DNA of 64,000 nt from Enterobacteria phage vB_EcoM_IME540. Positions 47,055 through 52,339 of the stretch are shown one piece after another. The position numbers were made by a program, and so were the translations under genes. Every line of letters starts with the position of its first letter. Within the stretch, counting starts at the first letter, position 1. The notes under the pieces were generated by a model. It had not been told where the DNA came from. It did no database searches and saw nothing but the letters and a program-made list of their open reading frames with translations. Location: sequence record MT150133.1. One strand, given 5' to 3'.

Positions 47055-47246
47055 TTAATCAAAGTATTCATAAACGAACCAGGCAGGATTCCTGTTCGAC
47101 ATGATTCTATCATACTCTGACTTAAAAGCATTTCGGAGATAATCTTCAGTAACAAGATGTTCGTCTCCAGAGAAGTTATTAACTAAAACATACCGCTTTA
47201 GTTCAGGAACGGCCAACAAATGCTGGCCTGTTATAAAATCACTCAT
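47055..47246 (-). CDS. hypothetical protein (63 aa)
   Basis: ORF between 46 and rpbA-like gene. Confidence 0.55.
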   Translation of the reverse strand: MSDFITGQHLLAVPELKRYVLVNNFSGDEHLVTEDYLRNAFKSEYDRIMSNRNPAWFVYEYFD

Positions 47247-48925
47247 TCCAACACCGTGAATCGTCCAACTTTCTTCATTTGAAGATGTTGGCCATAAGCT
47301 TGTGGGTCATGGTCTCGGTGAGAGATAATGAACACGTTCGTATCCTCAAGGCTATTCAAGATGGTTGCAATGGTCTTAACGCCTTCAGCGTCAGTAGCAC
47401 TGTCAAATACCTCATCAAGAATTAACGTGCTGATATTAACACCTGATACCTTAGAAGCAATATCGCGCCATGTAAAAAGTAGTGCGATATCAATACGTGC
47501 TTTCTCACCCTGTGAAAATGAAGCATAACTAAAGTCTTCACGTCCACGTGATTTAATCGTCTCATTGAACTCTTCGTCTAGTGTAAAGACGTAGTCAGCT
47601 TCCATAATCTTCAAATAAGAATTTATCTGCTTATTAAAGATAGGAATGTATTTCTTAATAATGGAACCTTTAATACCAGTATCCTTCAACATTTCTGTCA
47701 GAATTCCACGATGATATTTTTCCATTACTAAGGACGATTTGGTAGAGACGATTTTATCAAGCTCTGCTTGAAGCGCGGCAATCTCTTCGGCATTACTTAC
47801 GAACTCAGCAGCTGCTTGGTCAATTAATACCTTAACTTTTTTGGCTTTCTCTACAGCAGTAATAGCTTGTTGCTTATGAGTAGCTATCTGAGATTTAATA
47901 GCCAGCGCTTTATTACGTTGTTCGGTTACTTGGTCCTTAATGAGCTTGAGTTCTTGGTACTGCTCATTAATCTTATCCAAAGATTTTTGAAGCTCAAAAT
48001 TCTTATCCTTAATTTTAGTAAGGATATTTCCATGCTCTTCCAATCCTTGCATACATGTAGGACAACTACCACCGGTTTCGTATAACTTAACAACCTTAGT
48101 AAAGGTCGCCATATCATTCTTGATTGCAAATCCTTTATTGCTCAGGTCACTCATAGAGTCGCTAGGGTCATCATCGACGATGACATTGAGTAATTCATCA
48201 GTTAGTTTTTCTATATTGCCCTTCGCAGTCCTGGCTTCTTTAACGAGCTCGTCATACATTACTTGTAGACGTGCTGCGTTCTCGCCGGATAATTTACGCT
48301 GTCGTTCTTCGTTATCATTATAAATTTTAATTTGCTGGGTAATAGAATCCTGTTTAACATCGATTACTTGGATTTGGCTATTAGTCTCACGAATCAAAGA
48401 TTTGTTCAACTTATCCATATCCGCTAATACAGAAACCTCTAAGAGGTCTTCGACGAGTTTTCTTCTTGCAGGAGTGGATAGGCCCATAAAAGGGGTATAT
48501 CCAGCTGTGCCGAGTACGACAATCTGTTTGAAGCTTGTGTAGGACATTCCGATAAGCTGTTCAAATTCCGCTTGGAAGTCTTTACTGCTGGCAGATTCAT
48601 CAAGACGTTCACCGTCACAAGAGATTTCAAAAACGTTGGGTTTTTGCCCGCGTTTGATGTAGTATTCTTTGCCATCATATTCCATCCACAGTTCGACCAA
48701 AAGGTCTTTCTTATTACTTGAGTTAATCAACTGCCCTTTCTTAACATCACGAAAAGGCTTACCGAACAGAGCAAATGTAACGGCTTCAAGGAACGTAGAT
48801 TTCCCTGCGCCGTTTTTACCCGTGACTAAGGTCTTTTGGACCTTATCAAGTTGGATTGTAATAGGTTGCTGGCCTACCGACATAATATTTTTATATGTTA
48901 CTTTCTTTAACTTAAAAGTCTTCAT
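47243..48925 (-). CDS. 46: recombination endonuclease subunit gp46 (Rad50/SbcC-like ATPase)
   Basis: Walker A TGKNGAGKST near N-terminus; matches recalled T4 gp46 (KYKNIMSVGQ, IQLDKVQKTL); start at ATG MKTFKLKK with SD AAGGA. Confidence 0.93.
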   Translation of the reverse strand: MKTFKLKKVTYKNIMSVGQQPITIQLDKVQKTLVTGKNGAGKSTFLEAVTFALFGKPFRDVKKGQLINSSNKKDLLVELWMEYDGKEYYIKRGQKPNVFEISCDGERLDESASSKDFQAEFEQLIGMSYTSFKQIVVLGTAGYTPFMGLSTPARRKLVEDLLEVSVLADMDKLNKSLIRETNSQIQVIDVKQDSITQQIKIYNDNEERQRKLSGENAARLQVMYDELVKEARTAKGNIEKLTDELLNVIVDDDPSDSMSDLSNKGFAIKNDMATFTKVVKLYETGGSCPTCMQGLEEHGNILTKIKDKNFELQKSLDKINEQYQELKLIKDQVTEQRNKALAIKSQIATHKQQAITAVEKAKKVKVLIDQAAAEFVSNAEEIAALQAELDKIVSTKSSLVMEKYHRGILTEMLKDTGIKGSIIKKYIPIFNKQINSYLKIMEADYVFTLDEEFNETIKSRGREDFSYASFSQGEKARIDIALLFTWRDIASKVSGVNISTLILDEVFDSATDAEGVKTIATILNSLEDTNVFIISHRDHDPQAYGQHLQMKKVGRFTVLE

Positions 48926-49175
48926 CGTTATAAGCATCCTTGATGCATGATTCAGCCATATGAATTAATGTTTCTGGAGTATCATCTACCATTACATTAA
49001 AGCTAAATTCCACAGCCCAATCGGTAGCAACATAGACTTTAATAAGCTCGTTGGTATCGCGAGTGCTCACGGCTTCAAACCAGAACTTGATTGTACTAGG
49101 CTGTCCATCGTCATCAATAACGATACAGTCGTGTTCTAGTTCGAGGCCTGATTTTTTGAATTCATCTAAAGTCAT
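48912..49175 (-). CDS. hypothetical protein (87 aa)
   Basis: ORF between 47 and 46. Confidence 0.6.
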   Translation of the reverse strand: MTLDEFKKSGLELEHDCIVIDDDGQPSTIKFWFEAVSTRDTNELIKVYVATDWAVEFSFNVMVDDTPETLIHMAESCIKDAYNDEDF

Positions 49176-50194
49176 CGTGTAACCTCATTATAAAGTTGTG
49201 CAGCCATGGTCTTAAGGGCTTTAACATCGTCTTCAGTGTGGCCGTCAGGAAGGGCATCGATATAATCATACATCATATCCAAGAGGGACTTGACTTCATC
49301 TTCCTCTTCAGAATCATCGATATCAACACTGTTATCTACCTTAGACACAATACGTAAAGAATGGACGACCTTTTCAAGCTCTGATTCGAACTTGGTAAGC
49401 CCGTCATCAATTTTATCGACTATAACACGAACCGCAATATTTGTAAAATCTTTGTAATCGATAGTCGCATTCGGATAATGAATCTTACGATGCCAACAAG
49501 TTTCATTGATGATGAAATCCATTTTATGGGTTTCTGTATCGAAAATCCAGAAGCCACGAGGGTCGTTCTCATCACCTGCAGTCAGGGTCCATGGCGTACC
49601 AATATACTTAACGTTTGCTGCATCAGAAATAGTGTGGAAGTGCCCAGACCATACCTGCTTATACTTCTTAAGGAAATCAGGTTCTAAACCATGAGATTTC
49701 ATTCCTTTATAGAAATAGAAACCATTTAATTCCCAGTGACCTATACAGAAATCTGCTGTGGTATTTTTGATATGGTCCATGATATCGGTCGTGTTTTCTT
49801 CACACATCCATGGAATCAAATCAATTTCGGTGCCATCAAAGTTAACCGTAGTGGGTTTCTCAATAACCTTGATATGGTCATATTTACCCAGAACTTCAGA
49901 AGCAGCGTTCGGTGTCAAGGTATTTTTGTAGTGGGCATCGTGGTTGCCTACGACAGTATACATGGTAATGCCGTTGGTTTTAAGCAAATCTGAAATATGT
50001 CTAGCAAATTCCATGCACTTATGAGTAATTGCTTTACGAACATCAAATATATCACCGTACTGAATCCATACAGTAATGCCATTTGCTTTAGAATAATTGA
50101 TGGCATCTTTGATGCCGGCCAATTGGATGTTTTGCACCCAAGGGTCGTCGTTCTTCACTCCAAGGTGCCAGTCACCCGTATTAAGAATTTTCAT
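49172..50194 (-). CDS. 47: recombination endonuclease subunit gp47 (Mre11/SbcD-like)
   Basis: Calcineurin-like phosphoesterase motifs (ILNTGDWHLG, GDIFD, VVGNHD, GHWE); track ORF extends 24 codons upstream of the likely ATG MKILNTGD. Confidence 0.92.
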   Translation of the reverse strand: MKILNTGDWHLGVKNDDPWVQNIQLAGIKDAINYSKANGITVWIQYGDIFDVRKAITHKCMEFARHISDLLKTNGITMYTVVGNHDAHYKNTLTPNAASEVLGKYDHIKVIEKPTTVNFDGTEIDLIPWMCEENTTDIMDHIKNTTADFCIGHWELNGFYFYKGMKSHGLEPDFLKKYKQVWSGHFHTISDAANVKYIGTPWTLTAGDENDPRGFWIFDTETHKMDFIINETCWHRKIHYPNATIDYKDFTNIAVRVIVDKIDDGLTKFESELEKVVHSLRIVSKVDNSVDIDDSEEEDEVKSLLDMMYDYIDALPDGHTEDDVKALKTMAAQLYNEVTR

Positions 50195-50798
50195 TACGTA
50201 TTCGTTCCCACATTTTGGAGGCTGCTTTAGAAGCAGAGCCAGGAAGTTTACCTTTGACCCACCCATCAGGAATATTAGATGGGTTAATCAGTTTATGTTC
50301 TATTCCGTTATTATACCACTTCCTGCCCTTATTATGACTAGATGCTTTATAATTAGGTGAACGACCTTCTACGTATCCTTCCGGGACTGTAGGTGCAAAG
50401 GTTTGTTCCAATGTAACAGGATTATAGGAATGAATATACCCTTTAGCATTATGAGAGCCGTAAAGAGGGTGTTGCTCTTTAGGTAGCGAAAGCCCAAAGA
50501 ATCCTTTAGGAGCTGCGACAGCCCTATTAAAGAATAGAGGATTTTGGGCCGCATCGGTTCTTAACTGGTACATTCTTTCAGCTTCTAAAGCCTCTTCTCT
50601 TGTAGGGTGTTCACTTACAATACACGAGTCAAATAATTCTGGATGCTCTAAAAGCTCATTTTTATAGATTTCTTTATATGCTTTAGAAAGGACACTCCCG
50701 TGATATCCTTTTAAATGCTTCTCTAAAGTGGTAGACCCTATATAAAACGGTGGAAGCTTAGTCCCGGAATATATTGTCAGGTATGTGATGTATTTCAT
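50181..50798 (-). CDS. GIY-YIG family homing endonuclease (Seg-like)
   Basis: N-terminal YITYLTIYSG...PFYIGST with downstream conserved R/E and N; C-terminal NUMOD3-like NKGRKWYNNGIEHKLINPSNIPDGWVKG. Confidence 0.65.
   Translation of the reverse strand: MKYITYLTIYSGTKLPPFYIGSTTLEKHLKGYHGSVLSKAYKEIYKNELLEHPELFDSCIVSEHPTREEALEAERMYQLRTDAAQNPLFFNRAVAAPKGFFGLSLPKEQHPLYGSHNAKGYIHSYNPVTLEQTFAPTVPEGYVEGRSPNYKASSHNKGRKWYNNGIEHKLINPSNIPDGWVKGKLPGSASKAASKMWERIRNENS
50181..50798 (-). mobile_element. free-standing homing endonuclease gene inserted between genes 47 and 55
   Basis: Seg-type endonuclease ORF at a locus that in T4 carries a-gt and mob/seg elements; bounded upstream by a terminator. Confidence 0.5.
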
Positions 50799-50826
50799 AG
50801 ATTTATTTTATCATCCATTCAGAAAG

Positions 50827-50847
50827 CAAAAAAGGAGCCTAAGCTCC
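50827..50847 (-). terminator. intrinsic terminator (GGAGC-TTAG-GCTCC plus TTTTTT)
   Basis: Hairpin with T-run upstream of the homing endonuclease gene; overlaps stop of a small ORF. Confidence 0.55.
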
Positions 50848-51012
50848 TTTACCAACTAATACACCATACAGAGGTTCATGAGAAGACCTGAACTTAATAG
50901 GCTTATATGTAATAGTACCTTCATTTTCTGCTTTAATACGAGCGGCTTCAAATTGAAGAATCATCTCGTTTTTGTCAGATTTAATCTTATCAAAATCCAT
51001 CGAATTCGTCAT
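50839..51012 (-). CDS. hypothetical small protein (57 aa)
   Basis: Sub-threshold ORF MTNSMDFDKIKSDKNEMILQFEAARIKAENEGTITYKPIKF... with SD AAGAGG; stop lies in terminator loop; coordinates approximate. Confidence 0.35.
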   Translation of the reverse strand: MTNSMDFDKIKSDKNEMILQFEAARIKAENEGTITYKPIKFRSSHEPLYGVLVGKGA

Positions 51013-51567: not shown

Positions 51568-51798
51568 TTAATCCTTTGGAGTCAATTCAATAGTGAAGTA
51601 GAAATTAGCGTTCTCAACATGATAACGGTAATCTACGTTATTGTCAGGAGAAGTGAATTCAATATTCCTGACGTTAAGTGGGTCAATATCAATAGGAAGA
51701 CCTTTAACATCCCGTAATATCAATTTAATAAAATAAGGGAGTGCTTCAAAGTCTTCCATTCCATCTAAAAGTGGAGTGATATTAATCTGATGTTCCAT
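51568..51798 (-). CDS. hypothetical protein (76 aa)
   Basis: Track ORF trimmed to [11 protein letters not shown], which overlaps the gp55 3' end. Confidence 0.55.
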
Positions 51799-52339
51799 AT
51801 AAAAAATCCAGTTCACCAACTTTAGGTTCGGCACTCTTATCAGACCCTGGCGCTTTAGTTAAAGAGGTTTCATACTGTGTCATTTTATCGTAGATATCTT
51901 GGATAAAGGTTTCATCTGCAATACCTACCATATCGTCATCATTACTGTCATAGACATTATGGACGAAGTAGCTATATTTCTTTGCCATTTCTTTACGTTC
52001 TTTTTTGATACGCTGAACGAAGGCATTAAAACAAGCCATAGTGATATATGCATGCGGGTTGTCGTATTTTGTTTCGTCGAAGTTGTGAAGACCTTTAATC
52101 GAAGCTTCGATTCCATCAGCAATCATTTCTTGCTTCCAAGATTGGGTATATCCTGAGAAGTTGAAACGTTTACTTAGTCCTTCAGCAATGAGCATAATAG
52201 CCAAGCCGATAACGTCGTTCTGGCGAACTATTTTATTAGGATCGGTATTTTCTCTAAGCTCTGTTTTCCATTGGGTAATAGCTTTCAGAAGCTCCTTATT
52301 ATTTACATAGTTATTTTTAGTCAGTTTAATTTCGGTCAT
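51782..52339 (-). CDS. 55: late-transcription sigma factor gp55
   Basis: 185 aa; near-identical to recalled T4 gp55 ([81 protein letters not shown]); SD GAGGT. Confidence 0.95.

Follow-up and report, generated by a model that had tools for sequence, protein, structure and literature searches.

The 64,000-nt stretch of the Enterobacteria phage vB_EcoM_IME540 genome analysed here (MT150133.1; hereafter the window) carries, on its minus strand between the recombination gene 47 and the sigma factor gene 55, an open reading frame (ORF) of 205 amino acids (aa) that is very probably a working homing endonuclease gene (HEG), free-standing and of the Seg type known from phage T4, with SegE as its closest T4 relative. 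This reading is carried by an intact ORF, a GIY-YIG fold, kinship with SegE in both domains, purifying selection, a sporadic distribution at one locus in five genera, decayed copies, silent changes at the start of gene 47 and a mosaic tract across the border of the two genes. A first-pass annotation, made from the letters alone, had already proposed a free-standing GIY-YIG HEG between 47 and 55, and the fold, the relationship to SegE and the patchy presence bear that proposal out. As regards cleavage, its position, immunity and the pattern of expression, we infer by analogy with SegA, SegE, SegF and SegG how the protein would behave. The gene and its parts are as follows.

50181..50798, minus strand: Seg-type GIY-YIG homing endonuclease gene, free-standing (from the ORF list; ATG start, 205 aa plus stop)
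50499..50798, minus strand: N-terminal GIY-YIG nuclease domain, aa 1-100 (strands 3-10, 18-24, 56-64; helices 25-29, 42-51, 67-80)
50442..50498, minus strand: linker, aa 101-119, of low confidence (predicted local distance difference test, pLDDT, 62-65), with a 'HPLYGSHN' remnant seen in alignments
50244..50441, minus strand: putative DNA-binding region, aa 120-185, with two SegE-like hairpin repeats, YIHSYNPVTLEQTFAPTVPEGYVEGR and KWYNNGIEHKLINPSNIPDGWVKGK (from the model and alignments)

The ORF, which is present in a single copy in the window (tblastn), is not a product of chance, because it matches PHROG 10820 (1.5e-92), has 249 homologues at E<=1e-3 in a large protein collection, and shows ratios of nonsynonymous to synonymous substitution (dN/dS, Nei-Gojobori) of 0.05-0.15. 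The lowest ratio, 0.05, was obtained against the copy in phage NC-G, at a dS of 0.32, and ratios of 0.11-0.15 against the copies in EI (Klebsiella), G4507 (Tequatrovirus) and FBB1 (Erwinia); judged by these values, the protein is under purifying selection. Its AlphaFold model, based on 107 sequences, has a pLDDT of 85.7 overall and of more than 96 for residues 1-90. The elements follow one another in the order beta-beta-alpha-alpha-beta-alpha, a three-stranded sheet with flanking helices that constitutes the GIY-YIG fold, and structure comparison of the model returned GIY-YIG nucleases only. The 'GIY' motif reads 'YITYL' (Y6) and the 'YIG' motif 'FYIG' (Y19-I20-G21). Y6, Y10, G12, Y19 and G21 are conserved in 106 of the 107 homologues, and Y32, E48, F56, E74 and N91 in all of them; E74 corresponds to the metal-binding glutamate of I-TevI (E75) and N91 to its structural asparagine (N90).

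Among the T4 proteins, SegE is the closest (BLASTP 6e-11, 28% identity over aa 19-192, hence over both domains). A hidden Markov model (HMM) of the family ranks SegE first (4.9e-15), followed by SegC (7.6e-9) and SegG (8.4e-8), which is the outcome of the comparison with SegA-G that the first-pass annotation had called for. In the nuclease domain the pattern 'YIG…GY-x-GS…F…E…N' is shared with SegE, and the likeness extends to SegG, whose 'PPYYYIGS' and 'IEAERKYQL…NPDYFN' stand opposite 'PPFYIGS' and 'LEAERMYQL…NPLFFN' in the window protein (phmmer 3.8e-7). The C-terminal motifs are of the type "WYNNG...PxGWxKG", and the same motifs align in T4 SegE and SegB (BLASTP, HMM); the hairpin copies are CYTNGTKNIFIKPGELVPEGFVKG and FWVNNGAINKLIQPDGIIPDGFIKGRL in SegE, and YIHSYNPVTLEQTFAPTVPEGYVEGR and KWYNNGIEHKLINPSNIPDGWVKGKL in the window protein. 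In the model they form strands 122-125/132-135 and 160-163/168-171, within blocks whose mean pLDDT is ~87-93. It is this similarity to SegE that points to DNA binding by the C-terminus. The C-terminal motif had earlier been described as NUMOD3-like, a description that has to be given up: the window protein has no Pfam match to NUMOD3 (PF07460) even at E<=1, and two SegE-type beta-hairpin motifs are found instead. The one stretch that can be aligned with NUMOD3, at its beginning in paralogues, is 'HPLYGSHN' (alignments, family HMM). Many of the homologues share just the first ~115 residues, and these N-domain paralogues do carry NUMOD3 C-termini; the close full-length homologues have no Pfam domain on record.

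The distribution of the gene is that of a mobile element. The window belongs to the Dhakavirus (JS98-like) phages; a 3.4-kb region is 96-97% identical to coliphages QL01 and IME08, and the endonuclease of the window matches that of IME08 at every residue (100% identity) and that of QL01 at 99%. In Dhakavirus-type phages, about 12 of the 100 records obtained with the window as query carry the gene, seven of them in the short form and five in a longer one; the rest lack it. The 205-aa form occurs in the window, IME08, QL01, NC-G, Esco_phi_B-01 and Ec2-ASingh, and a 284-aa variant with a different, longer C-terminus is found in phages of the KIT01, LQ5 and SHP1 type (P0001). Of the phages without the gene, WG01, MX01 and others have the small gene 47.1 at this position, and Bp7, E33 and PSD9 have neither; JS98 was reported to be without any HEGs (PMC2993671). 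In Tequatrovirus, 66 of 522 records have the endonuclease, and the remaining ones give a two-piece match spanning 500 bp, that is, an empty site. The gene is thus absent from many relatives at this position, as would be expected of the mobile gene suspected earlier. The comparison of G4507 with T4 reveals a clean insertion of ~600 bp exactly between 47.1 and 47, with flanks that are 98-100% identical; in both phages the TGA of 47.1 overlaps the next start codon, which is the endonuclease ATG in G4507 and the gene 47 ATG in T4, and the empty site is clean in T4, RB32, HY03 and IsaacDaniel. The idea of a simple insertion therefore holds for Tequatrovirus but not for Dhakavirus, where, relative to the HEG-less phages, the endonuclease stands in place of 47.1. 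Three further genera have members of the family directly 5' of gene 47, again overlapping its start: Marfavirus (Klebsiella phage EI), Roskildevirus (Erwinia phage FBB1) and Biquartavirus (Aeromonas phage L9-6). With Dhakavirus and Tequatrovirus, one locus is thus occupied in five genera. A scan of IMG/VR returned mostly N-domain paralogues at unrelated loci, and its full-length additions were copies of QL01, 005 and KPV15 only.

A separate observation concerns 47.1 itself. Its 3' part is near-identical in nucleotides between T4 and WG01, with the 24-nt atttcaataattttattttgcatt being the same in both, and its conservation (WG01, L002 2692-2835; T4, L008 10445-10585) is far above that of the surrounding genes between genera. 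The conserved stretch may be part of the endonuclease recognition region or a regulatory element.

Copies in various stages of decay were also found. In Bp7, the first 11 nt of the endonuclease, ATGAAATACAT, run straight into the end of the long variant, TATAAAGGTAGATTATGA. The two meet within the 9-bp repeat GAAATACAT, which is found at both ends of the long gene, and what is left is a 15-codon mini-ORF, MKYIIKVDYENFEYR (L003 ~2696-2740). From these sequences, the mini-ORF is a relic of the long variant, left by a deletion between the two repeats. The copy in vB_EcoM_005 has a 33-aa in-frame internal deletion compared with the 284-aa P0001 (L013 1392-2147). The orthologue in Klebsiella phage KPV15 runs in frame to about residue 127 and is then frameshifted, so that its ORF ends at 162 aa (L018 3004-3608), and its pieces appear in RefSeq as two 'HNH endonuclease' annotations; this frameshift reflects either a decaying copy or a sequencing error. 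Together, these copies form a natural series of states from the intact gene through the C-terminal variant, the internal deletion and the frameshift to a near-complete relic.

SegE, SegF, SegG and SegA each cut a conserved gene that adjoins their own locus (PMC2988022). By analogy, gene 47 of phages without the endonuclease is the presumed target here. The features of this region that bear on homing are these.

49172..50194, minus strand: gene 47, SbcD/Mre11-like recombination nuclease subunit, intact (340 aa; Metallophos 3.7e-8; PHROG 100, 2.4e-134)
50181..50194, minus strand: 14-nt overlap of the endonuclease 3' end (…NENS*) with the first codons of gene 47 (from the sequence)
50177..50188, minus strand: gene 47 codons 3-6, candidate part of the recognition/immunity site (four synonymous differences between phages with and without the HEG)
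49860..50312, minus strand: mosaic block covering the last ~40 codons of the endonuclease and the first ~112 codons of gene 47 (sliding identity)

The conserved N-terminus of gene 47, MKILNTGDWHLG, begins at the ATG at 50194-50192, and the endonuclease stop codon TAA (50183-50181) lies 11 nt within gene 47. The earlier statement that the stop overlaps the gp47 start with the neighbour undisrupted is therefore correct, and similar overlaps exist in QL01, NC-G, EI, G4507, FBB1 and L9-6. Codons 3-6 of gene 47 differ silently according to whether the endonuclease is present. In Tequatrovirus, G4507 and Killian, which carry it, read ATA CTA AAC TTG, and the HEG-less T4, IsaacDaniel, HY03 and RB32 read ATT TTA AAT TTA; in Dhakavirus, the window reads ATT CTT AAT ACG (ACR when QL01 and NC-G are included), and WG01 reads ATA TTA AAC ACA. 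Just downstream the sequences are identical, for at least 50 nt in all Tequatrovirus comparisons (78 nt between G4507 and T4) and for ~24 nt in the Dhakavirus pair. By analogy with SegF, SegG and SegE, these differences would fit an immunity or target polymorphism, although the signal is suggestive.

On a larger scale, both sides of the mosaic block are 95-100% identical to WG01, Bp7 and 005, whereas identity within it falls to 37-75% against 005, 42-77% against Bp7 (in the 5' part of gene 47) and 68-95% against WG01. Against 005, it amounts to 97-100% upstream of ~50312 and to ~90-100% beyond 49860; upstream, identity is back at 90-100% right at the endonuclease ATG. We read the block as a probable co-conversion or recombination tract. 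The break point at ~50312 lies inside the second hairpin motif of the endonuclease, in the conserved 'WYNNG'. Before it, the window gene is 97-100% identical to the 251-284-aa Dhakavirus variant; beyond it, the short tail is 85-88% like the Klebsiella Marfavirus copy, and this is also where the 5' allele of gene 47 changes over. The endonuclease gene itself is thus recombinant, since its 3' end (50201-50372) is 85-88% identical to the EI copy, compared with 45-77% across the rest of the gene; this segment is found across genera by megablast. One might speculate that a C-terminal recognition module and the gene 47 5' allele were exchanged jointly, as one cassette of ~450 bp (49860-50312). We regard this as rather unlikely, but if module and immunity allele do transfer together, the tract would be a natural record of how a GIY-YIG HEG is retargeted with its self-immunity kept.

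Taken together with what is known of the Seg enzymes, the following course of events can be proposed. The N-terminal GIY-YIG domain would cut DNA, and the C-terminal pair of SegE-like hairpins would recognize the site. Upon co-infection with a HEG-less relative, the enzyme would cut the genome of the relative at or near the 47.1/47 junction, at the extreme 5' end of gene 47. Recombination-dependent repair of the T4 type would then copy the endonuclease gene, along with flanking gene 47 sequence, into the broken genome, i.e., intronless homing with co-conversion. The product of gene 47 has itself been suggested to act in the resection step of homing. The carrier would be protected because the insertion splits the site and because of the silent substitutions in gene 47 codons 3-6. 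The endonuclease is probably made at a low level, co-transcribed with 47 and 46 downstream of the backbone terminator at the end of a-gt.2 and of a middle-type promoter.

Several results weigh against a functional Seg-type HEG. There is no invariant arginine at the position of I-TevI R27: at position 27, 81 of the 107 homologues have K, 14 have R and 10 have N, and the alpha-1 segment of I-TevI (R27/H31) aligns opposite a gap in the window protein. The Pfam GIY-YIG match (PF01541) is below threshold, with 16.9 bits against a gathering score of 22.6 (E 0.0078), even if 16 of 26 family members do match it (best E 5.5e-4). The comparison of the family profile with I-TevI is weak (E 0.016), and hhalign of the family with I-TevI alone gives a probability of 2.8%, too weak for placing catalytic residues. 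Searched against PDB sequences, neither the protein alone nor the family profile gave anything relevant, the only matches being YaiA and titin at E>0.2, and the endonuclease has no match in NCBIfam. In structure comparison the C-terminal region is without a solved structural analogue. As for the silent changes, codons 3-6 lie within the overlap with the endonuclease frame, whose constraint could partly explain them, and the sample is small (two phages with and four without the HEG in Tequatrovirus, three and one in Dhakavirus); it is for these two reasons that we call that signal suggestive. Moreover, in the literature searched, neither cleavage nor homing has been tested for the family by biochemistry or genetics.

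The missing R27/H31 helix and the subthreshold Pfam score could also point to a catalytically dead or domesticated remnant that neither cuts nor homes and is kept for another role, such as binding DNA, regulation, or coupling of its translation to that of gene 47, the more so as its 3' end carries the translation-initiation region of gene 47, which could by itself select for retention. However, all seven T4 Seg proteins (SegA-G) have a gap at the same helix, and for six of them (SegA, B, C, E, F and G) endonuclease activity has been demonstrated by experiment (PMC2988022). Because most members of the branch are proven nucleases and share the gap, the absence of the helix reads as a trait of the Seg branch and does not by itself speak for inactivity. 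Of the catalytic Arg and Glu whose presence the first-pass annotation had made the test of its reading, Glu74 is there in 107 of 107 sequences, whereas there is no invariant Arg, and SegA-G show the same gap at the R27 helix; K27 or the near-invariant R67 (97 of 107) may stand in for it, and PMC1564403 states nothing on the Seg arginine question. Retention for the sake of gene 47 would also not account for the (near-)invariance of Y6, Y19, E74 and N91, which lie in the nuclease domain far from gene 47, nor for purifying selection over the whole protein, and the clean presence or absence in 522 near-identical Tequatrovirus loci, along with the use of one locus in five genera, implies recent movement. 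We therefore consider a dead remnant improbable. Still less probable is a nuclease that serves chiefly in competition or defence, for instance by keeping out co-infecting phages or satellites or by breaking down foreign DNA, in the manner of T4 EndoII or the PD-T4-3-type nucleases. Architecture and sequence are of the Seg and not the EndoII type, PADLOC gave a weak match to its 'HEase' (homing endonuclease) model (1.2e-5, aa 137-192) and no defence system, and a single conserved locus with co-converted flanks and decay relics is the signature of a HEG life cycle. The label 'HNH endonuclease', which RefSeq gives to the QL01, 005 and G4507 orthologues and which PHROG 10820 also bears, has next to no chance of being right. 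Pfam contains no HNH family that matches even at E<=1, the GIY and YIG motifs are present and the structure matches GIY-YIG nucleases only; fold and motifs thus refute an HNH identity. A functional free-standing HEG of the Seg type remains by far the best account.

Its nearest known counterpart, T4 SegE, is likewise 205 aa long, has a Seg-type GIY-YIG domain without the I-TevI R27 helix, and shares the two C-terminal 'W/Y-x-N-G…P-x-G-W/F-x-K-G' hairpin motifs. SegE lies between inh and uvsW and cuts uvsW of HEG-less relatives, so that both genes sit directly upstream of a conserved DNA-metabolism gene. The differences are the low identity (28%), the locus and presumed target (gene 47 as opposed to uvsW), the family-specific, near-invariant residues Y10, K27, H33, S38 and R67 of the window protein, and its overlap with the downstream gene. 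SegG, which is gene 32.1, cuts gene 32 and is associated with co-conversion from a distant site, and SegF cuts gene 56 (PMC2993671, PMC2988022). Both follow the same logic of intronless homing, with a co-conversion tract in a neighbouring essential gene, but their C-terminal DNA-binding regions differ from that of the window protein; the helix-turn-helix-like tail of SegF and SegA resembles the 251-284-aa Dhakavirus variant and not the 205-aa form. I-TevI is more remote, being encoded in the T4 td intron, whereas the window gene is free-standing, and having, besides its alpha-1 R27/H31 segment, a zinc finger and a helix-turn-helix DNA-binding domain that the window protein is without.

Orthologues of the gene are already in databases, under various names: 'SegE homing endonuclease' in EI, 'homing endonuclease' in Killian, and 'HNH endonuclease' in QL01 (NC_028847), 005 (NC_055783) and G4507 (NC_054919), the last label apparently inherited from the annotation of PHROG 10820. 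In IME08 (HM071924) the gene is unannotated. No paper characterising this endonuclease was found in the literature searched; it occupies a locus where T4 itself has no Seg gene. The present analysis corrects the RefSeq label and fills the gap in IME08. It also places the family at the same site in at least five genera, whose hosts are Escherichia, Klebsiella, Erwinia and Aeromonas, and offers a sharply defined candidate target, the 47.1/47 junction with gene 47 codons 3-6. When T4-like phages co-infect a cell, localized marker exclusion and mosaicism between them are driven by endonucleases of the Seg type; this matters for therapeutic cocktails of Dhakavirus and Tequatrovirus phages, since such genes bias the outcome of recombination. 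The gene is an ordinary HEG for a T4-like phage and changes no concept.

The signals that might govern expression lie in the short interval upstream of the gene.

50839..51012, minus strand: a-gt.2 homologue (DUF5486), the upstream neighbour (Pfam 2.5e-20; QL01 annotation)
50821..50850, minus strand: intrinsic-terminator-like hairpin with T run at the end of a-gt.2 (8-bp stem and 4-nt loop at 50850..50831)
50805..50828, minus strand: MotA-type middle-promoter-like site TGCTTTC-N11-TAAAAT, ending 6 nt before the ATG (pattern search)

The terminator that had been noted just upstream of the gene does exist, as a hairpin at 50850..50831 in the remaining interval of 50799-50847, where it overlaps the a-gt.2 stop. 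However, it is part of the phage backbone and not of the mobile gene, because an identical hairpin is present in the HEG-less WG01 and Bp7; the G4507 annotation also has a terminator there. The middle-promoter-like site is likewise a backbone element, with its promoter function predicted from the pattern: HEG-less WG01 has a perfect box at that place, TGCTTTA-N11-TAAAAT. Within the window, the pattern TGCTTY-N12-14-TANNNT, comprising a MotA box and a -10 element, is found 21 times against 5.3 expected, a four-fold enrichment that suggests many T4-type middle promoters. A transcript from the site next to the endonuclease would start at about its ATG, which has no Shine-Dalgarno sequence. In T4, Seg genes are served by middle or late promoters, and many of them have no ribosome-binding site (PMC2988022). 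The predicted promoter and the missing Shine-Dalgarno sequence would by analogy be consistent with the weak middle or late expression of the free-standing T4 endonucleases. A pattern search found no T4 late promoter (TATAAATA) near the gene; this pattern has three matches in the window against 6.9 expected, rarer than by chance and consistent with a 64-kb stretch of mostly early and middle genes. Generic sigma-70 promoter matches were at chance level. In a minimum free energy fold of 50780-50870 on the minus strand, the start of the endonuclease, AUGAAAUACAUCACAUAC, pairs with the 3' end of a-gt.2, UGUAUGGUGUAUU, around the terminator (z -3.5). In this model, the pairing could hide the start codon in read-through transcripts, an arrangement known for some T4 endonuclease genes.

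The surrounding genes, all on the minus strand, follow in the order 55, a-gt.5, a-gt.4, a-gt.3, a-gt.2, endonuclease, 47, 46.2 and 46. The late sigma factor gene 55 occupies 51782-52339 (PHROG 234, 8.9e-69), and a-gt.4 is a DUF2654 gene. That T4 has alpha-glucosyltransferase and mob/seg elements in the equivalent interval, as stated earlier, is right: the T4 genes there are 47.1, a-gt and the HNH gene mobB. Two of the neighbours are mislabelled in related phages, the a-gt.2 homologue as 'prohead core protein protease' in EI and a-gt.4 as 'hemolysin' in 005. Downstream, QL01, WG01, Bp7 and T4 have a gene 46.1 of ~210 bp that is missing from the window, where gene 46 (47243-48937) is directly overlapped by 46.2 (48912-49175), with the junction at ~48924-48940. 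The state without 46.1 is common to NC-G and vB_EcoM_005 and represents a second presence/absence polymorphism ~1.3 kb from the endonuclease.

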